Assembly: GCF_053078305.1 (NCBI RefSeq)
Contig: NZ_CP166878.1
DNA length: 32,715 nucleotides
Reading direction: 5' to 3' (one strand)
DNA from: a plasmid
Within the stretch, counting starts at the first letter, position 1. Every line of letters begins with the position of its first letter. The notes below the pieces were generated by a model, which saw only the letters and a program-made list of their open reading frames with translations, did not search any database and was not told the DNA's origin. Positions 1,923 through 27,720 of the stretch are shown in pieces. A program made the position numbers and the translations under genes.

Positions 1923-2987
1923 ATGGATAAAAAGACAAAAACATATCCTTTTGGTGACATTGAGTTTTTTGACCAGTTAGAGGAACATGCATGGGACCAG
2001 ATTCATGATGGTATGCTACCAATTATGGATTTGTATCTTGATCCGACAGTAACCGATATATTTATAAACAGGTATGACAATATATATACATCTGTCAATG
2101 GCAAGTATGTAAAGACCGACAGTTCCTTTTCCAGTGAACGGGCACTTAAAGCCTGGATTGATCAAATCGCAACGGTGTTGAGGCAGCCATTTTCAACGTC
2201 AGGAAACTATAAATATGGTGATGTCATTGAGCCTGTACTTGATGCCCGATTTCCCGATGGTTCCCGGTTGATGTGTACAGACCCGGTGATTTCACCGCAG
2301 GGTTCTACGGTAAGTCTTCGTAAAGTACCTAAGCAAATACTGGAAGAAAAAGATTTTATAAATTCCGGTATGTTGACGAGAGATATTCTTGATTATCTCA
2401 TTAGTGTTATACAAAAACGGAAAAATTTTATTGTTGCTGGTAATACTGGTTCTGGCAAAACATCACTTTTACGCTTGCTCGCCAGGTATATTGATACGAT
2501 GGAGCGTGTTATCACCGCCGAAGACACTCAAGAACTTCATATACACAGGTATTTTCCGTTAGGGATTGCTCTGGAAGCTGCACATCGTAAAGATGTGAAT
2601 GCGGATCTTCCTTCTCTGGTTCACCTGACTATGCGTGGTAATCCCGATCGTGTATGGGTTGGGGAGGTAAGAACGGCAGAGGCTATAGCTGCTTATTACA
2701 TGGTTCTGGCAAGTGGAACTATAGGTAATGCTACAACTCTGCACTCCGTTACCCCTATGGGGGCAATACGCAAAATGACCTGGCTTATGTCAAGCTATCT
2801 CAGTATCGATTTTCAGATAGCTCAGGATTTAATTATGTCAGAGGTTGACGTGATTATTCAGTGCCGGAGAACATCAAAGCATGGAAGAAGAATTACAGAT
2901 ATCGTCGAAATACGTGAAGGGAAAATTGTTCCTATATTCAAGTTTGATGAAGAGCAAGAAGTACATGTCAGGTTTGACAAAAAATGA
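1923..2987 (+). CDS. virB11: VirB11-family secretion ATPase
   Basis: 354-aa ORF; Walker A GNTGSGKTS, downstream ITAEDTQEL and conserved His-box region typical of VirB11/TrbB traffic ATPases; ATG at 1923. Confidence 0.9.
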   Translation: MDKKTKTYPFGDIEFFDQLEEHAWDQIHDGMLPIMDLYLDPTVTDIFINRYDNIYTSVNGKYVKTDSSFSSERALKAWIDQIATVLRQPFSTSGNYKYGDVIEPVLDARFPDGSRLMCTDPVISPQGSTVSLRKVPKQILEEKDFINSGMLTRDILDYLISVIQKRKNFIVAGNTGSGKTSLLRLLARYIDTMERVITAEDTQELHIHRYFPLGIALEAAHRKDVNADLPSLVHLTMRGNPDRVWVGEVRTAEAIAAYYMVLASGTIGNATTLHSVTPMGAIRKMTWLMSSYLSIDFQIAQDLIMSEVDVIIQCRRTSKHGRRITDIVEIREGKIVPIFKFDEEQEVHVRFDKK

Positions 2988-3000
2988 ACATTTAGCATTA

Positions 3001-3080
3001 TATGCTTATATGCTTATATGCTTATATGCTTATATGCTTATATGCTTATATGCTTATATGCTTATATGCTTATATGCTTA
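3001..3080. repeat. Perfect tandem octamer microsatellite (TATGCTTA x10)
   Basis: Ten uninterrupted head-to-tail copies of TATGCTTA directly readable in sequence, starting 14 bp after the virB11 stop. Confidence 0.95.
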
Positions 3081-3105
3081 TATCATTGTGTTTGTGTGAA
3101 ATATT

Positions 3106-3299
3106 GCTGTAACATCGACGGTCTACGACCACCTACCACCTGAATAGCTGTAGGTTCCGTGCGGTCAGGCTTGGCAGGGGGCTGACGCGGTTCCTGGCGA
3201 CATGAAACTCCCTGGTTAGGGGTATCGGCGCGACCTGGCATCTGTGACTCTATAAAGCCATTTTTCGCGCCTTCCATGCCGCTAAAGCGGCATATTCCA
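3106..3299 (+). repeat. 194-bp repeat family, copy 1 (upstream of ccdA)
   Basis: Near-identical to 18900-19093 and ~90% identical to 3962-4155; begins GCTGTAACATCGACGGTCTACG and ends with hairpin ATGCCGC-TAAA-GCGGCAT then ATTCCA. Confidence 0.9.
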
Positions 3300-3366
3300 C
3301 ACTTCTAGATCCGGGGTTTTGGGTATATGCTATGTTTATATGCATAATTTATGTGGGGGGCTTGTT

Positions 3367-3612
3367 ATGAGAACAAATGTGGCAGTAAAAAAACGTAGTA
3401 TAAACGTATACTTAAATGCAGGGTTACTTGAAGAAGCAAAAGATCTTGATCTGAATGTTTCTGCTATCTCTAACAAAGCTCTCGAAAAAGCGGTAAGGGA
3501 GCGTAAGCGTGAACGCTGGATAGAAGAAAACCGTGCTGGCATTGAGGCATTAAACCGTTTTGTAGAAGATACCGGGATTTTTTCAGATGATGAAAATTTT
3601 GGGGTAATTTAG
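3367..3612 (+). CDS. ccdA: CcdA-family antitoxin
   Basis: Recognisable similarity to F-plasmid CcdA (VNISxxxxxxxxEARRxRAERWxxEN...FADENRDW pattern: NVSAISNKALEKAVRERKRERWIEENRAGIEALNRFVEDTGIFSDDENFG); ATG 3367 preceded by G-rich RBS; stop overlaps ccdB start. Confidence 0.85.
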   Translation: MRTNVAVKKRSINVYLNAGLLEEAKDLDLNVSAISNKALEKAVRERKRERWIEENRAGIEALNRFVEDTGIFSDDENFGVI

Positions 3613-3929
3613 TGAAACAATTTTCTGTCTACAAGAACAAATCGCGAAATAAACAGGCGTACCCCTATTTTATTGATATACAGGCAGAGATGCTTGCACA
3701 CCTTAACACCCGGTTGGTGATGCCTTTAACGCCAAAAGATAATTCAAACTCGCAGGTAAAGACGTTAACGCCAGTAATAAACATCAACCAGGTAGATTAT
3801 GTGGTTCTGACTACTATGATAACGACAACGGATGCAAAAAATCTGAACTCTGATAATGTCGTTATGGATGCTTCATATTTACGAGATCAACTGGTTTCTG
3901 CAATTGACATGATGATTCTGGGTATTTAA
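3612..3929 (+). CDS. ccdB: CcdB-family gyrase-poison toxin
   Basis: GTG start overlapping the ccdA stop by 1 nt; protein begins MKQFSVYKNKSRNKQAYPYFIDIQ and ends MMILGI, matching the CcdB family pattern ([21 protein letters not shown] ... LMFWGI). Confidence 0.85.
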   Translation: MKQFSVYKNKSRNKQAYPYFIDIQAEMLAHLNTRLVMPLTPKDNSNSQVKTLTPVININQVDYVVLTTMITTTDAKNLNSDNVVMDASYLRDQLVSAIDMMILGI

Positions 3930-3961
3930 TTTTTGCAGGGTAGTAAATAGTAAAAAATATC

Positions 3962-4155
3962 GCTGTAACATCGACGGTCTACGACCACCTACCAGCCGAG
4001 TGGCTGTCTGTTCCGTGCAAATGGGCTTTGCAGGGGGCTGGCGCGGTTCCTGGCGACCTGAAAGCCCCTGGTTAGGGGTATCGGCGCGACCTGGCATCTG
4101 TGACTCTATGAAACCATTTTTCGCGCCTTCCATGCCGCTAAAGCGGCATATTCCA
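3962..4155 (+). repeat. 194-bp repeat family, copy 2 (downstream of ccdB)
   Basis: Same length and ends as copy 1; about 20 substitutions clustered in hairpin-forming segments, several compensatory. Confidence 0.9.
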
Positions 4156-4233
4156 AACTTTGGAGCAGTTCTGCAATGTTGTTTGAATTGTTTCGTAGTC
4201 GTATCATTATTTTTTATGTGATGATTGTTTTTT

Positions 4234-4560
4234 TTATGTGTCTGACATTTTTCCAATCATGATTTCTGTGAGATTTGTATCAGCAAAATCTCCTTTCCCC
4301 GATTCAGTGTCAAAGTCGCCTGGCGTGAACTTATGTACGTCTTGCCAGACTGCGAAGCAGGTAGGGCATGTTACAGGTAGTTCGCCCTCCGCTATCTTTT
4401 CACAACTTTCTACCAGTTCTTGTTTCTCGTTGTACCTGATGTTATAGCCGCTTGTGCAAAGCGTTTCATACCCGTGAGCGCCCGTCACTATATGTGTGGC
4501 GGTTCTTTCTGTGATTTTTCCATCAACTAATAACTGTTCATGCGTTGTGATCGTTTGCAT
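4234..4560 (-). CDS. Hypothetical Cys-rich protein (108 aa)
   Basis: ORF with CxxC-type cysteines (CTSGY...CEKIAEGELPVTCPTC); no family recognised; lies between repeat copy 2 and the virB3-like gene. Confidence 0.45.
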   Translation of the reverse strand: MQTITTHEQLLVDGKITERTATHIVTGAHGYETLCTSGYNIRYNEKQELVESCEKIAEGELPVTCPTCFAVWQDVHKFTPGDFDTESGKGDFADTNLTEIMIGKMSDT

Positions 4561-4704
4561 GTCTGTCTCTCATAATTGTTGGTTTATGTGATTGTTGGGG
4601 CGACCGTAAAAATATACGCCAGATGATGGGAGAGCATCTTATTTCGTATTGCTCAAAAAAACATATGACAAATATCACAAAAATGAAGTGCAGGTATTGA
4701 CATC

Positions 4705-4717
4705 GGGGGGGGGGGGG
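4705..4717. repeat. Homopolymeric G13 tract in divergent intergenic region
   Basis: 13 consecutive G read directly, 71 bp upstream of the virB3-like start. Confidence 0.9.
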
Positions 4718-5508: not shown

Positions 5509-8109
5509 ATGGGGCAGAGCTATAACGAACATCTGAATCTGGCAGGCATCGAACAACATTCCGGGCAGGTGTATACCTATACTGGAGGTGCTTTTGGTGC
5601 TATTGAACTGACAGGTGTTGATCCAACGGGTGTTACCCCTTCTCAGGGTAGCCGTATTTCTTTATTACTTCGTAATATCGTTCAGTTACTGCCCCTTTCT
5701 GTCACACTGACTCAGTATTATATCCATAATGACGGCGTTAAGATCCGGCTGACAGGGCGTGATAATCAACGCAGTCAGTTACTTTCTATGCGTCGCCAGG
5801 CATATCTTAATAAATGTCGTAATTTAAATGCCTCAAGAATTATATGGACGCTGGATGTTCACCCGGAAGAGAATATTAATCGCCTGGCATCTGCCGAGTT
5901 TTTAAAGAATCTTTTTAACAGCATGTTTGATGACACAGCCAGACGTAAAGTCAGGCTGGCACTGTCAAATCGCGAATCGTTTATCATTGAGCGTCAGGCA
6001 TTTGAAAAACAGTGCCTGTTGCTGAAAGAAACATTACGCGATCTGGACTTACGCCTTTCTTTTATTTCAGAAGATAACAGGATTCTTGATTCAGAAGGGA
6101 TCTGGCGATTACAGAAGTTCCTTGCAACATTTAATCACCATTGGCTGGCTCCACGCCGTAAGGTCACTGTACCCAATGATATGTGGGATTGTCTGGCGAT
6201 TGAAGGTGACGATATCGAGGCCATTACCTGGCGTGGCGTTGATATGTTGAAGATCCAGGGGGTACGGCCTGTTTATGTTCGCCTGGCCAGTGTGTTGAAA
6301 ATAGGCGATGAATCTGTACCGGAATGTGCCTGGGCGCTGACAAATGGCAGACCAGTTTTACAGCGGGGTAACTACGTTTACTTCATGCGGTTCACTCCCG
6401 CCAGTGCCTTTAAGAAGTCACTGATGATCAGCGGGAAAGAAAACGAACTTGTCAGGACTCAAATCAGTTTGAGCGATTTAATGACTGACAGTACGAGCAA
6501 AGATATTCTCGATGAAAAATTGCGCAGAAATTCACATCTGATGAAGATGCGCGAAGAACTGGAGAATATTTCATATTCAGATGAGCGCCTGGGGATCTGC
6601 CAGGCCGGGATTGCTGTATTTAATACAGATCCCGATAAATTACTTGAGACTTGTGCGGATATTAACCGTAGTGTCTCTCAGACCATGCAAGTTGTATGGG
6701 AGACGGTAGCACAACTGGATGCTTACAAGGTTATGCAACCAGCCTACTCACGCAATACATTTCGTGCATTACAGCTTAACGCATCTCAGATGGGGGCGGC
6801 ATCCTTGTTCTTTAAATCCCATCCAGGTATTCCTGAATGGGAGCTAAATGGACGCATGGAGGAAGCCTTCTATATTCTTGAATCAGATGATGGCGTGCCG
6901 TTTTTCTTTACGCCAAAAGTTAAAGAAAAGCTACTGCTTCTTGGTAATGGGGCGACCCGTGGCGGCAAGACTTTTATGAAAAACTGTATTGCCAGCCATT
7001 TTATTAAATTCGGTGGTCTGTATAACTGTCTGGATATCGATCCTGGCTCTATCCCAATGGCTAATTTCTTTGGGGATGATGGGGCAGCATTTACCCTTGA
7101 TAGCGATTTTCAGTGTGGTTTTAACATGTTCAGTATGGCGCAAAGCAAGGATGACAGGGTATTTCTTGCGCATCTTATAGAGCAGTTAAAAGCAATGGCA
7201 GCAGAAAATGACAGTGAGCAGGATAAATATTTAACGCCTGATGAACTTGAAAATATAACAGTGTGTGCGAGTGATCTTCTTGTACAAAAATTTTCGCCGA
7301 ATGAGGGGCGTTTAAGCTCAATCACGTTGTCAACGCTGGTTTCTAAGTGTGGTCAGAGCGTTAAACGCAAGTTAGCGCCATTTATTAGTAATGGTATTTA
7401 TGGACGTTTATTTGATAACAAAGAGGACGCGATTGGTGTTCTTGATAAGCCGGTAGCTGTTTACAACCTTTCAGGTGTGAAAGATAACCATAATCTTGCG
7501 CGGCTTGTGCACCGTGAAATCTTCTTTCGTGTCGTTCGTTTGTTTGAATCACCGGAATATCGCACGATACCAAAGTTTTTTGAAATAGATGAGGCACAGT
7601 ACACCCTGTCTGTACCACATGCCGCAGAGTTCGCTACACAGAAAGCCCGAACCTGGTTTAAGCATGGTGGGGGTATGGGATTCTGGACTCAGAACCCGGA
7701 GCACTATTCATCACTGGATGAGTGGACTACGTTACGTTCCTCGGCGTCGGTGTTTATCTTTATGCCGGATAATGAGGCAACAGTTAAAGCATTCCATGAT
7801 GCTTATGGCTTCGATGAAGAAGAAGTGAATATTATTCGCAGCCTTAAGGTAAAACAGCAGTCGTATATAAAGATCCCGGACATGCAGATTGCAAAAGTGG
7901 TGAATCTGTTTGTTGAGGCTGAACAGTATGCTGTTTGTACATCAACGTCTAATGAAGCAGCCCTGGCAGCGGAAATATGGAAACGTGAATCAGATCCCGA
8001 TGTTGCAGTGCGACAGATTGTAGAAGGTCTGATAACGAAGTGTAATAAGGACTTGATCCCAACGCCTACAGAGACTGAAAAGGATAAAACGGAGGGGTTT
8101 TTCTTATGA
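5509..8109 (+). CDS. virB4: VirB4-family T4SS ATPase
   Basis: 866-aa ORF, Walker A GNGATRGGKT, size and position typical of VirB4/TrbE; RBS GAGGTGA. Confidence 0.9.
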   Translation: MGQSYNEHLNLAGIEQHSGQVYTYTGGAFGAIELTGVDPTGVTPSQGSRISLLLRNIVQLLPLSVTLTQYYIHNDGVKIRLTGRDNQRSQLLSMRRQAYLNKCRNLNASRIIWTLDVHPEENINRLASAEFLKNLFNSMFDDTARRKVRLALSNRESFIIERQAFEKQCLLLKETLRDLDLRLSFISEDNRILDSEGIWRLQKFLATFNHHWLAPRRKVTVPNDMWDCLAIEGDDIEAITWRGVDMLKIQGVRPVYVRLASVLKIGDESVPECAWALTNGRPVLQRGNYVYFMRFTPASAFKKSLMISGKENELVRTQISLSDLMTDSTSKDILDEKLRRNSHLMKMREELENISYSDERLGICQAGIAVFNTDPDKLLETCADINRSVSQTMQVVWETVAQLDAYKVMQPAYSRNTFRALQLNASQMGAASLFFKSHPGIPEWELNGRMEEAFYILESDDGVPFFFTPKVKEKLLLLGNGATRGGKTFMKNCIASHFIKFGGLYNCLDIDPGSIPMANFFGDDGAAFTLDSDFQCGFNMFSMAQSKDDRVFLAHLIEQLKAMAAENDSEQDKYLTPDELENITVCASDLLVQKFSPNEGRLSSITLSTLVSKCGQSVKRKLAPFISNGIYGRLFDNKEDAIGVLDKPVAVYNLSGVKDNHNLARLVHREIFFRVVRLFESPEYRTIPKFFEIDEAQYTLSVPHAAEFATQKARTWFKHGGGMGFWTQNPEHYSSLDEWTTLRSSASVFIFMPDNEATVKAFHDAYGFDEEEVNIIRSLKVKQQSYIKIPDMQIAKVVNLFVEAEQYAVCTSTSNEAALAAEIWKRESDPDVAVRQIVEGLITKCNKDLIPTPTETEKDKTEGFFL

Positions 8110-15665: not shown

Positions 15666-15818
15666 CTACGGGGATGATAATACCCATGAGGTTGATACTT
15701 GGCAGAGTCAGCTTGTGGGCATTATCAGGGGACTATAAAAGCCCATTTAAATTGTATTTAAATCATCCGGTAACGGCAAGAAAAATAATGTGTCATTCAG
15801 GCATAAGTGCAGGGCCAT

Positions 15819-16787
15819 ATGATTAGTCCGGCAATTGATTATTTTGCGGCAAACTTGCCATACCGACCTTATCACGCGAATGAATTGCTCTATGGGCTTC
15901 GTATCGATAAGGCAGCTAAAGCAGTGCTGGCGCGTTATATACAGCATAATCCACCTCATGCAATGTACTGGCTTGTTTTTGACGTTGACAGGCCAGTTGC
16001 GGCGATTGACTGGAATGATCTTAATGCGCCCACACCTAATTTTACGGTCAAAAATCCGGTTAATGGTCATGCACACCTGTTTTATGGGTTAAAAACGGCA
16101 GTTCGTGTTGCCAAAGACGGTAGCATTAAGGCGATCGAGTTTGCTGCTGCGGTAGAGCGAGGATTACGTGACAAACTTAAATCAGATATCGGCTATGCAG
16201 GGCTGATCTGTAAAAATCCTCTCCATACATGCTGGCAGGTTGTTGAATGGCGTGGAGAACTTTATGAGTTAGCTGAACTGGCTGATTATGTTGATTTGTA
16301 CGCGTCAACAGCGGCTAACGATGAACAGGCATTCGATATCGACTTTAGTTATGGGCTTGGGCGAAATTGTTGGCTCTTCAATCTGACCCGTATCTGGTCA
16401 TATACAGCAATCCGGCAGGGCTGGCCTGATTTCCCGCAATGGAAAGAAGCGGTGATTCAGCGTGTCGAAATGTATAACGTGCAGTTAAGCGTGCCTTTGT
16501 CTCACAAAGAATGTGTATGCATTGGCTCCAGCATCGCCAAATGGACGCATAGACGCTTCACTGAAGCTGGATTTGAGCAATATGTAGCTGATACCCATAC
16601 ATCAGAAATTCAGGCTCGTAGAGGGCGTAAGAATCGCTCAGAAGTGCAGGCTGCTAAGGGGCGTAAAGGTGGGAAAATATCTAAAAGAGGGATTGTTGAG
16701 GATTCTGCGCGGAGTTTGAAACCGTGGGTAGAGTTAGGGATCAGTCGGGCAACCTATTATCGACGTAGGGCAAATGAGACCAAATAA
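15819..16787 (+). CDS. ColE2-type plasmid replication initiator (primase-type Rep, Replicase family)
   Basis: N-terminal region YRPYHANELLYGLRIDKAAKAVLARYIQHNPPHAMYWLVFDVDR is characteristic of ColE2-like Rep proteins as I recall them; basic HTH-like C-terminus; origin-like sequence overlaps the stop. Confidence 0.65.
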   Translation: MISPAIDYFAANLPYRPYHANELLYGLRIDKAAKAVLARYIQHNPPHAMYWLVFDVDRPVAAIDWNDLNAPTPNFTVKNPVNGHAHLFYGLKTAVRVAKDGSIKAIEFAAAVERGLRDKLKSDIGYAGLICKNPLHTCWQVVEWRGELYELAELADYVDLYASTAANDEQAFDIDFSYGLGRNCWLFNLTRIWSYTAIRQGWPDFPQWKEAVIQRVEMYNVQLSVPLSHKECVCIGSSIAKWTHRRFTEAGFEQYVADTHTSEIQARRGRKNRSEVQAAKGRKGGKISKRGIVEDSARSLKPWVELGISRATYYRRRANETK

Positions 16788-17649: not shown

Positions 17650-17710
17650 CAACCCCCTGATATCTCTCTTAGAGCTTTTGCGGGGCCAAAGAAGATAATC
17701 AGGGGGTCCA
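17650..17710 (+). promoter_or_regulatory. Long stem-loop in repA leader (candidate antisense-RNA target)
   Basis: Arms CCCCCTGATATCTCTCTT / AAGAAGATAATCAGGGGG around an 18-nt loop containing GCCAA (one base off the conserved IncFII/IncB loop hexamer); location upstream of leader peptide and repA. Confidence 0.45.
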
Positions 17711-17743
17711 AAGCAGGCTTTTGCCTGTAAAGGATTATAGCAA

Positions 17744-17800
17744 ATGCATTTTTCAATACAAGACTACTGCCCGGCAATAAGTGCGGGCGGTGGTGGCTGA
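17744..17800 (+). CDS. Leader peptide overlapping repA start (translational coupling candidate)
   Basis: 18-codon ORF MHFSIQDYCPAISAGGGG whose stop lies 17 nt inside repA, the arrangement seen for tap/repY-type leader peptides. Confidence 0.45.
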   Translation: MHFSIQDYCPAISAGGGG

Positions 17801-18506
17801 AAAGAACAATTCCTTAATCCCCCGCATATCGCCGTCAGGGGTGGCCAAACAAAGTCCATGCTATAACGTTGTGTCGCGTAAGCGACGCCGTTTCCTCAAT
17901 CGCTGGATTAAATCGCTGGCGACGGTCGCTGGGCGTGTCAAAATCAAAAACGAACTCCGCCGCCGTATCCGGCATAACCGATATTGGGTTAATGAGGCTA
18001 ACAAGTTTGGCATAGAGGCACTTTGCGAACTGATGTTAGCTATCCTGGATGATCTCGATTTACGCTCCTGGGAAACCAGGCATAACCTCGAAACACTGGC
18101 AGAACGTGCCGGACTGGTGACACGCAGTGACGCGGGGCGTAAATCTATTTCCCGTGCCAGTAGGGGATGTGATCGCCTGGTCTGGTTGAATGCGATCATT
18201 ACAGATAAAGCGCCGTTTAACCCCTATGATGCACGGTGTGCCTGTAAACACATTGAAGTAACCGAAGACTTCTTTGCCATACTCGGCATTCCGTTAAAAC
18301 TGGTTTATCGGGAACGTGCCAGGCTGTTAAAGGCAGATCCTAATGAAATGATTTACTCCGGGGATGCCAGACTGATAGCTATCAGAGTCCAGAACTGGAC
18401 ACGGAAAGCGGCAGCCGGATTAGCCCGGATGAAAGCGAAACGCGACGCAGCTCGACAACGCAAAAAAGAATATTACGCTCACCCACCTACCCCTATTCCG
18501 GTCTGA
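17781..18506 (+). CDS. repA: IncFII-family replication initiator RepA
   Basis: Segment LETLAERAGLVTRSDAGRKSISRASRGCDRLVWLNAIIT aligns with the RepA1 core of R100-type proteins (SITTLAIECGLATESAAGKLSITRATRALTFLSELGLIT); GTG start right after an in-frame stop. Confidence 0.75.
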   Translation: MRAVVAEKNNSLIPRISPSGVAKQSPCYNVVSRKRRRFLNRWIKSLATVAGRVKIKNELRRRIRHNRYWVNEANKFGIEALCELMLAILDDLDLRSWETRHNLETLAERAGLVTRSDAGRKSISRASRGCDRLVWLNAIITDKAPFNPYDARCACKHIEVTEDFFAILGIPLKLVYRERARLLKADPNEMIYSGDARLIAIRVQNWTRKAAAGLARMKAKRDAARQRKKEYYAHPPTPIPV

Positions 18507-18609: not shown

Positions 18610-18659
18610 TCAGAAAAGAGCAGTTATAAGCTGTATCATTGGGTAAACAATGCACAGGT

Positions 18660-18668
18660 TGTGGATAA
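18660..18668 (-). promoter_or_regulatory. Consensus DnaA box (TTATCCACA)
   Basis: Forward TGTGGATAA is the exact complement of the 9-mer consensus; lies about 150 bp downstream of repA. Confidence 0.5.
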
Positions 18669-18705
18669 TCATACTTAAAGTGCAAACGATATGCCGCAAT
18701 TACTC

Positions 18706-18750
18706 TTTTGCTTCTCTTTTAGTTACTTACGTACTAAAAGAGAAGCAAAA
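18706..18750. repeat. 18-bp perfect inverted repeat with 9-nt spacer (origin-region hairpin candidate)
   Basis: TTTTGCTTCTCTTTTAGT - TACTTACGT - ACTAAAAGAGAAGCAAAA; no T-run on either strand, so not a terminator. Confidence 0.8.
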
Positions 18751-18899
18751 AAGAAAAACATTACTGTTATCCCCTTTAACAAGTGAATAACCTAAAAACA
18801 TCGGCGCAAGCGCCTCAAAAGTAGCACCCCTCGCAAGCTCGGGGCATTAGAAACAACAGCATCCCATCATCACAATCGAACTATTATTCATCTATCTTC

Positions 18900-19093
18900 G
18901 CTGTAACATCGACGGTCTACGACCACCTACCACCTGAATAGCTGTAGGTTCCGTGCGGTCAGGCTTAGCAGGAGGCTGACGCGGTTCCTGGCGACATGAA
19001 ACTCCCTAGTTAGGGGTATCGGCGCGACCTGGCATCTGTGACTCTATAAAGCCATTTTTCGCGCCTTCCATGCCGCTAAAGCGGCATATTCCA
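18900..19093 (+). repeat. 194-bp repeat family, copy 3
   Basis: Differs from copy 1 by only a few substitutions; same orientation; sits between the repA origin region and the next gene. Confidence 0.9.
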
Positions 19094-22109: not shown

Positions 22110-22404
22110 CGGCAAGCCTGTTTTTTGAACAGACTTACCTATCGCGATAGGGTGTACTCCCGTGCTATACGGCGTTTTCAGGGGCTTTGGCCTTAATCGG
22201 ATAACCTAAATGCGACATAGCAAGAGCGATAACTTAAAGGCGATAGCCGCTGATGTTAAATCAATACGTTAGAATCTTAAATTGATTAAATAATGCGCTT
22301 AACGTACAAAAATTTCCGTTTCCCAAACCGCCCCCATATTGTACGTTTCCCTAACCGACCCCTTACTGGTCGCGGAAAAATCCAGGTTTCCGGCCTGGAA
22401 CCCC

Positions 22405-22536
22405 TATACAATCACTTGATTCGATAATTATAAAATTAAGTGATTTTATGATTGCATGATTCTATGAGCATGGGATTATTAGAATGTTTGGCAGAGGTAC
22501 TATGTGAACAAAGGGGAGGGGAAAATGCCTAAAGTT
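22405..22536 (+). repeat. Orphan duplicate of par promoter-operator plus first 4 parA codons
   Basis: About 94% identical over 132 bp to 24844-24975, including RBS and ATGCCTAAAGTT, then diverges; the operator inverted repeat is degenerate in this copy. Confidence 0.85.
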
Positions 22537-24644: not shown

Positions 24645-24843
24645 GTTCATTAAAACCCCGTACAATATATTGTACGGGGGTAGTACAGAAGAGGTATTGG
24701 GTTGCTACATTTCCAGGTTATATGCAGAAACCATTTTTATTTTATCAGGTATTTATTTTTTCTTAATGAGATAGTTCACAAAATCATCAATCCAGGGACT
24801 GTTTTTCGTTATCTGCCGTATCTGCGTACCCCTGATTTTTTGG

Positions 24844-24963
24844 TATACAATCACTTGATTCGATAATCATAAAATCAAGTGATTTTATGATTGCATAATT
24901 TTATGAGTATGAGATTATTAGAATGTTTGGCAGAGGTACTATGTGAACAAAGGGGAGGGGCAA
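24844..24963 (+). promoter_or_regulatory. par promoter-operator (candidate centromere/operator)
   Basis: Perfect 12-bp inverted repeat AATCACTTGATT ... AATCAAGTGATT plus reiterated TGATT motifs directly upstream of parA. Confidence 0.6.
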
Positions 24964-25587
24964 ATGCCTAAAGTTATAGCATTTTTAAATGGTAAGGGGG
25001 GGGTGTCTAAGACAACCTCGGCAGTCAATATTGCTACTGCTCTTGCTCGTAAGGGATACAAAGTTGTCGTTGTGGATACCGATCCTCAGGGAAGTGTTAG
25101 TAACTGGTATGATGACAGTAAGTGTGTTTTTGATGTAGCAGAAGCTACGACAGAAAAAGAAATTTACCGTTTGCGGAAGGCGCTTCCTTTGCACGATTTT
25201 ATCATTATTGATGGTGCTGCGGCGATTTCGGCGATATCGGCAGCTGCTGTTATGGTTTCTGATCTTGTCATTATCCCAGTTACTCCTTCGCCGCTTGATT
25301 TTGCTGCATGTGGCGCGATATTGGCAGTGATAGAAGCTCGGCAGGATTTACGCCCGGTGATTGCTCGCTTTTTGATTACTAAAAAAGTACAGCAAACGCA
25401 TATGCTATCTTTGCTGAAAGAATCTATTGCAGAAACAAGCATACCAGCATTAAAAACAGGAACGTCGTACAGGCAGTCATATATAAAGTCTATGCTAGAT
25501 GGTGGTACTATATTTGATACAAAAGATAGTGCTGCTAAAGGTGAAATATCAGTCATTACAGAAGAAATACTTGGACTATTAAAATGA
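24964..25587 (+). CDS. parA: ParA-family partition ATPase (ParF-like)
   Basis: Deviant Walker [19 protein letters not shown]; ATG 24964 with GGGGAGGGG RBS (ORF track begins at upstream GTG 24943). Confidence 0.9.
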
Positions 25588-25793
25588 GTAAAATGAAACT
25601 TGGGAATCATAAGGCAACAAACACCGCTCTGGATGCACTAAAGAAACCTGCTGGAGCAACCAGGAAATTACAAATGAATATTCCAGAAGAGTTACACCTT
25701 GCATTTAAGTTAGCTTGTGTGGAAGATGGTGTCGATATGACACAGGTAAATATAGAACTAATTCAAAACTGGTTGAAGAGTCGTAACTTATAG
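25584..25793 (+). CDS. ParG-like ribbon-helix-helix centromere-binding protein
   Basis: 69 aa; start overlaps parA stop; C-terminal region [39 protein letters not shown] resembles ParG of TP228 as remembered. Confidence 0.65.
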
Positions 25794-27349: not shown

Positions 27350-27720
27350 GTTATTTCTCCAGTTTTGCAAGATGTTCACGGTATTCATTATATACTGCAT
27401 TATAACGAATACACTATAATTTCCAGAAGAACAGGGCTATTTAACATAATGGACGTTATCAGCACCACCGGATCACAGTTCGTTGTCAGATCTGAAAAAT
27501 CCGCTCAAAAGATCATGTTTTCCTGGGCGTTTTTCGTCGTTTTTTATGTTGCTTATTTGTTAATAAAATCTCGTTTCTTGTTTTGGCTGAATTTGGATGT
27601 GAAAGCCTTATATTTGCAAGTTATCCGGTGAAGGGAGGTAGCCGAGACTGAGGATTGATTGTTTTGTACAAGTTCTAATGCATAATGTGTACATATAGTA
27701 GCGTTAGCATAGGGCGTAGT

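Follow-up and report, generated by a model that had tools for sequence, protein, structure and literature searches.

Bacterial VNTR/MLVA-type loci are short tandem repeats that vary by whole units, and plasmid-borne loci of this kind are used to type E. coli O157. Contingency loci include the TAAA tract upstream of the promoter of Neisseria nadA and the TA tract between the -35 and -10 hexamers of Haemophilus hif. Repeated protein-binding sites form another group. In the metboxes bound by MetJ and in the TP228 ParG site the period is 8 bp, and the sites of omega are 7-bp heptads. A+T-rich unwinding regions belong to iteron-type origins such as lambda ori and plasmid oriV. The repeat array described here was compared with each of these systems.

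The window, which is the whole 32,715-nt stretch of DNA that was analyzed, appears to be an entire ~32.7-kb plasmid from a family of 27-35-kb E. coli plasmids. An octanucleotide VNTR, to which no strand is assigned, occupies positions 2998-3083 and consists of ten copies of TTATATGC followed by a partial TTATAT (77% A+T). Tandem Repeats Finder reports a period of 8, 10.8 copies, 100% matches and 0% indels with the consensus TTATATGC and a score of 172, compared with 57 for the runner-up tandem repeat in the window. A separate repeat search of the window returned the same register. In the other register the array reads as ten exact copies of TATGCTTA at 3001-3080. The initial annotation had described a perfect tenfold octamer at these positions, and both direct reading and Tandem Repeats Finder bear this out. 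The octamer occurs 14 times in the window compared with 2.07 ± 1.57 expected from dinucleotide shuffles, a count that was reached in 0 of 100 shuffles. The locus is thus a short unit in head-to-tail copies, as a VNTR should be.

The array lies just downstream of a gene for a VirB11/TadA/CpaF-like secretion ATPase (1923-2987, + strand). The gene was identified from the open reading frame list, a match to Pfam PF00437 (T2SSE; E = 3.5e-25) and the RefSeq names of its counterparts in relatives, where it is called TadA, CpaF or a 'T2SS/T4P/T4SS family' ATPase. A coupling-protein-like open reading frame of 621 residues (1-1866) is located 5' of the ATPase gene. The ATPase stop codon TGA is at 2985-2987 and the array begins 11 nt downstream. 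On its 3' side the order is a 15-nt spacer, copy A of a portable ~200-nt element, the ccd promoter/operator, ccdA (3367-3612, + strand; Pfam PF07362, E = 1.2e-24), ccdB (3612-3929, + strand; Pfam PF01845, E = 5.8e-27) and copy B of the element. A reverse-strand open reading frame (4234-4560) follows copy B, and the VirB3-like gene (4788) and VirB4 (5509-8109) come next. The nearest outgroup is a set of Providencia/Proteus plasmids whose ATPase is 60% identical. In these plasmids a small reverse-strand gene and VirB3 stand directly after the ATPase gene, and the array, the portable element and ccdAB are all missing. The initial annotation held that ccdAB interrupts the type IV secretion operon. 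The cassette does lie between the ATPase gene and the VirB3-like gene, but the claim is overstated: the same gap also holds the reverse-strand gene at 4234-4560, and a gene on the reverse strand is found at this place in the Providencia relative too.

Several other features of the plasmid were recorded. A 13-G run at 4705-4717 stands just after a TTGACA (4697-4702) and ~70 nt 5' of the VirB3-like gene; the run has 12 or 13 G in relatives and is interrupted in one of them. The G run in the ribosome-binding region of ccdA (3355-3360) ranges from 6 to 8 G among relatives. These length differences may be real slippage or homopolymer sequencing error. There are two replication-type genes. One encodes a PF03090 'Replicase family' protein (15807-16787) at the end of the type IV secretion block, and the other is IncFII_repA-like (17781-18506) and is preceded by a PK-repBA pseudoknot (17651-17778). 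The pseudoknot is the only Rfam match in the window at the gathering threshold. At E <= 10 the portable element gave no match, and the array gave only miRNA-hairpin matches that are far below threshold and meaningless. No recognizable relaxase was found on the plasmid, and its relatives are typed as 'non-mobilizable'. A near-consensus Xer core, GGTGCTGATAA-CGTCCA-TTATGTTAAAT, is located at 27439-27466 on the - strand, agrees with the dif consensus at 20 of 22 positions around a 6-nt spacer and is probably the multimer resolution site of the plasmid.

Array alleles were parsed from 31 sequences: the window, 10 complete plasmids, 2 metagenome contigs and 18 contigs from NCBI/ENA assemblies. The relatives are ~30-kb E. 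coli plasmids or contigs, and the family is 97-99% identical. The array is at the same place between conserved flanks in all 31 alleles and contains 4-17 units with a median of 8. Eight units are found in 8 alleles, 6 units in 5, 10 and 11 units in 4 each, 4 units in 3, 7 and 12 units in 2 each, and 9, 15 and 17 units in 1 each. Match lengths in further complete RefSeq plasmids imply arrays of 5, 7 and 13 units. Unit counts from draft assemblies may be distorted by assembly, but the complete plasmids alone still span 4-17 units. Every array difference among the 31 alleles is a whole number of units, and whole-unit copy-number differences between conserved flanks identify the locus as a VNTR. 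No allele with 0-3 units occurs among the 31, which carries little weight in a family this young (97-99% identical). The initial annotation had suggested that a change in copy number could shift the spacing of downstream control elements. There is no sign of a helical-phase constraint, since all counts from 4 to 12 occur (5 only from match length), and no paired element was found across the array.

The rate of change was judged from pairs of alleles. All 10 pairs with no substitution over up to 2,243 nt of flanking sequence differ in unit number, by a mean of 3.3 units, and the difference does not rise with flank divergence. These two results indicate that unit number is saturated and changes far faster than point substitutions accumulate. 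Variant units are also found within the array. The variant TATGCCTA is at the 3' end in three relatives (L004, L022 and L062) and internal in a fourth (L053), and the variant TATGCTCA has spread through two other arrays, where it makes up 7 of 8 units (L010) and 3 of 4 units (L071). This turnover of variant units is as expected for slippage. Two short-read contigs stop exactly at the start of the array. The initial annotation had called the tract slippage-prone and proposed that its copy number be compared across relatives. The copy number is not identical among them, and the 4-17-unit range, together with differences between plasmids that share unchanged 2.2-kb flanks, substantiates the proposal.

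We consider it probable, at about 0.6, that the array is a genuine fast-evolving VNTR that is driven by slippage, is neutral or nearly so, lies in a non-coding spacer and is independent of ccdAB. Both slippage and neutrality are inferred from the pattern of variation, and neutrality is an argument from the absence of evidence. Slipped-strand mispairing, at replication or repair, would add and remove units. The non-coding spacer belongs to a common family of ~30-kb E. coli plasmids with a type IV secretion system. The array comes after the ATPase stop codon and 15 nt before the portable element, so changes in unit number would alter no reading frame and no -35/-10 spacer. Points that count against the neutral reading are the abutting promoter-like site (10/12), the exact match of the unit to half of the ccd operator palindrome, the low duplex stability of the tract and the arrays in phage contigs, each of which is taken up below. 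Long perfect repeats are also, to our knowledge, uncommon in E. coli, and this was counted against neutrality as well.

The portable element next to the array is present in three copies. Copy A (3099-3304, + strand) is a non-coding direct repeat with 58-63% G+C in a surround of 26-40% G+C. Copy B (3955-4160, + strand) shares 90% identity with A and has a middle part of the pKL1/Col(MG828) type. Copy C (18900-19093, + strand) was located by BLAST and is 98.5% identical to A; it lies ~390 nt 3' of the IncFII_repA-like gene. The origin segment, which contains the single perfect DnaA box (18660-18668), ends ~45 nt before copy C. Homology of the replicon with other plasmids stops at about 18848, and the origin of the plasmid itself is at about 18650-18850. 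The spacing from repA to the element is the same in 24-kb plasmids as it is here. The element is found in 648-845 PLSDB records, most of which are 1.5-kb plasmids of the pKL1/Col(MG828) type. It is also carried by 4.2-kb plasmids that encode a Rep_1 rolling-circle initiator, by 24-kb MOBC/MPF_T plasmids and by one 104-kb plasmid, and identity to the element in hundreds of pKL1/Col(MG828)-type, Rep_1, 24-kb MOBC and other plasmids is 80-96%. The copies differ by 1-nt and 7-nt indels that break any frame, which indicates that the element is non-coding. The same indels led us to reject a protein-coding element, for which minus-strand open reading frames at 3083-3277 and 3879-4256 and the label 'rep protein' in one record had been the candidates. 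Copy B is a mosaic. Its middle part is 90% identical to the element of pG-EA11, and in relatives A and B are 97-98% alike, a pattern that suggests exchange between plasmids at the portable element.

Our best guess is that the element is a portable single-strand priming signal of the ssi/sso type. The guess draws only on position and on consistent orientation across four replicon types: here and in the 24-kb plasmids the element lies just past the origin, pKL1-type plasmids have it 3' of repA, and a Rep_1 rolling-circle plasmid also carries it. Single-strand folding gave weak z-scores of -0.7 and -1.5. Comparison of the copies revealed a compensatory change in one hairpin, and RNAalifold found no compensatory pairs in the element alignment. 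Other identities were rejected. As an Xer/cer site the element would need a core, and none of at least 15/22 was found, nor any similarity to ColE1; the real core of the plasmid is the one at 27439-27466. Identity as an oriT was rejected on two grounds. The pKL1-type plasmids have a separate R64-like oriT consisting of an inverted repeat and CACATCCTG/TCCCG, and in the 24-kb plasmids the element adjoins repA, far from mobC and the coupling-protein gene. A phage G4-type origin was also dismissed, as the matches in the phage collection were only mis-filed pKL1-type plasmids (three records).

The pKL1-type sequences gave observations of their own. The R64/IncI-like oriT, with its inverted repeat and then CACATCCTG/TCCCG, is seen at about 895-960 in one of them (L019), and it accounts for the typing of pKL1-type plasmids as 'mobilizable' although they have no relaxase gene. 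A scan of genome contigs with a 17-mer of the element returned mostly chance matches; the true matches were pKL1-type contigs, often in unlikely hosts. Assemblies of Streptomyces, Streptococcus, Corynebacterium, Mycobacterium, Rhizobium and Pseudomonas contain the 1.5-kb sequence on small contigs, often of low coverage (L025, L026, L032, L034, L038-L041, L046, L048, L049 and L051). Its presence in these hosts and in the phage collection is probably contamination or mis-filing. A literature search on the element, the repeat sequences, pKL1 and Col(MG828) yielded nothing usable.

Where ccdAB-plus and ccdAB-minus plasmids differ, the array is close to the left end of the differing region, and the initial annotation had placed it at the ccdAB junction, perhaps as an insertion scar. 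An origin of the array as a scar or junction product of cassette insertion is extremely improbable. Five relatives lack ccdAB and keep the array with 4-12 units (L004, 10 units; L009, 11; L022, 8; L062, 4; L063, 12). The cassette ends fall inside the two 206-nt direct repeats and not at the array, which is 15 nt outside the left repeat, and the 15-nt spacer that separates the array from copy A does not differ between the two types of plasmid. The array therefore neither accompanies the cassette exclusively nor marks its boundary, and a scar would do both. Plasmids without ccdAB carry one hybrid element, flanked as copy A is on the left and as copy B is on the right, which points to gain or loss of the cassette when the two direct element copies around it recombine, whether homologously or site-specifically. 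The array would be older than the cassette or independent of it. In another relative (L005) the cassette is interrupted by an IS3-family element, and ccdA does not give an intact translation. A role for the array in transcription was also considered. A sigma-70 promoter-like site (2974-3001, + strand), assigned by consensus match only, consists of a perfect -35 TTGACA (2974-2979), a 16-nt spacer and CATTAT (2996-3001), for a total of 10/12. The -10 overlaps the first array unit, and the start site would fall inside the array. This hexamer is CATCAT, CAGTAT or AATCAT among relatives, and most (CATCAT, CATTAT, AATCAT) retain a 4/6 match with A2 and T6. A scan found no terminator-like site between the ATPase gene and ccdA, making read-through transcription over the array plausible. 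Under this proposal, unit number would set the length or structure of a leader and thereby modulate downstream expression, as in a plasmid contingency locus; the transcript would come from the promoter at the 3' end of the ATPase gene or from read-through of the ATPase operon and would span the array, element A and ccdAB. All three + strand frames are open through the array, with an AUG in each unit, and hypervariability of this kind is displayed by contingency loci. However, open reading frames through the array are short and start out of frame, and promoter-like sites in the region are no commoner than in shuffled sequence (4 found, 6.1 expected). The -35 is in coding sequence and is conserved for that reason, and ccdAB has its own conserved promoter/operator 240 nt downstream. 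In plasmids without ccdAB the array is kept, yet only a convergent gene lies downstream. A tunable leader is thus unlikely. Position also speaks against a phase-variable contingency locus: the array is in neither an open reading frame nor the -35/-10 spacer, and the ccd promoter is 240 nt 3' of it.

Binding of the array by a protein was weighed in the same way. Ribbon-helix-helix (RHH) proteins coat tandem sites, and an 8-bp period would fit such coating by CcdA with or without CcdB, or by a ParG/omega-like regulator, so that the array could act as an extended operator, a decoy or an extra centromere. The ccdAB promoter/operator region (3319-3366, + strand) contains the palindrome TTATATGCATAA at 3336-3347. 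Its first 8 nt are the VNTR unit (3336-3343): TTATATGC matches the left half of the operator palindrome at 8/8 positions, and this is one of only 4 occurrences outside the array in 32.7 kb. The palindrome, TTATG..CATAA, is conserved in an alignment of Klebsiella and Pantoea ccd upstream regions. In the register TGCTTATA the unit is also identical at 7/8 positions to TGATTATA and at 6/8 to TGATTNTA. The TGATTNTA repeats are spaced at an 8-bp period in front of parA and of a second operon, TGATTNTA is enriched in the window (21 found, 8.6 expected), and a gene for a 69-residue RHH-like protein (25584-25793) follows parA. Nevertheless, binding is very unlikely. The array persists in plasmids without ccdAB, and array and binding partners do not co-vary: the operator region is invariant in all relatives and CcdA is essentially unchanged, whereas the unit has drifted to TATGCTCA in L010 and L071. 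The TGATT core is missing from all units, unit sequence and copy number look unconstrained, and the matches were found post hoc in A+T-rich DNA. The TGATTNTA repeats lie in two near-identical ~100-nt segments (22400-22500 and 24840-24950, the latter upstream of parA at 24943-25587) that carry TGATT/AATCA repeats with an 8-bp period. A small global regulator appears to use both segments as a shared operator or centromere. The final alternative concerns duplex stability. Among non-overlapping 86-bp stretches of the plasmid the array ranks fourth from the bottom in stability (-1.09 kcal/mol per step, about 2.6 sd from the mean of -1.32), and it might melt under negative supercoiling as a DNA-unwinding-type tract, exposing or loading the adjacent element, 15 nt away, as an ssi/sso-like priming signal. 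An identical (TATGCTTA)n array is present in two unrelated IMG/VR viral contigs, L073 (3670-3733) and L072 (408-500), directly beside four to five copies of CCTGTGGATAAC in the former and beside TATACCCGA-type repeats in the latter. These clusters of direct repeats are like the iterons or DnaA boxes typical of origins. The element itself is near origins or repA or on a rolling-circle plasmid, and in each of these settings its orientation is consistent. On the other side, such an array is missing from all of the hundreds of other element copies, including B and C, and no DnaA box or iteron was found near the array in the window. The plasmid has further stretches that match or exceed the array in instability, and two phage contigs are anecdotal. 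The ssi/sso role of the element is itself putative, given the weak fold scores and the RNAalifold result. A melting tract is therefore distinctly unlikely. That the array is a functional element tunable by copy number in any of these forms, as a leader or unwinding pad or as near-cognate RHH sites, and hence a contingency locus of an E. coli plasmid, is on the whole unlikely.

The preferred reading, a nearly neutral VNTR, has practical consequences. The array is a fast, high-resolution typing marker for a widespread family of small E. coli plasmids, one ATPase protein variant of which is indexed in more than 3,000 blocks of an assembly collection. It is also a predictable breakpoint in short-read assemblies. 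The searchable literature gave no record of this locus on this plasmid family. If unit number did affect ccdAB expression, priming or protein binding, the array would be a rare repeat-driven contingency switch on an enterobacterial plasmid. The surroundings of the repeat may outrank it in interest, namely a toxin-antitoxin cassette bracketed by a portable element that is also found beside the origin and on hundreds of small plasmids.

Comparison with the known systems places the array closest to the VNTRs. It resembles the RHH arrays of MetJ, TP228 ParG/parH and pSM19035 omega in its 8-bp period, its many contiguous units, the presence of plasmid-encoded CcdA and a ParG-like protein, and the likeness of its unit to the ccd operator half-site. 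It differs from them in the drift of unit number and sequence, its retention without ccdAB and its lack of the TGATT core. Low duplex stability and the occurrence of an identical array by iteron-like clusters in two phage contigs are shared with the unwinding regions of iteron origins, whereas the array has no initiator sites beside it and the plasmid origin is elsewhere, at about 18650-18850. Like the nadA and hif contingency loci, the array is a hypermutable intergenic repeat next to a promoter-like site. Unlike them, it is neither between the promoter hexamers nor in an open reading frame, and a separate promoter 240 nt away serves the next gene. The 8-nt unit and the run of up to 17 perfect copies are unlike the usual E. 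coli VNTRs. In its perfect units, conserved flanks, whole-unit polymorphism among close relatives, non-coding location and spread of variant units, the array matches the VNTR/MLVA loci.
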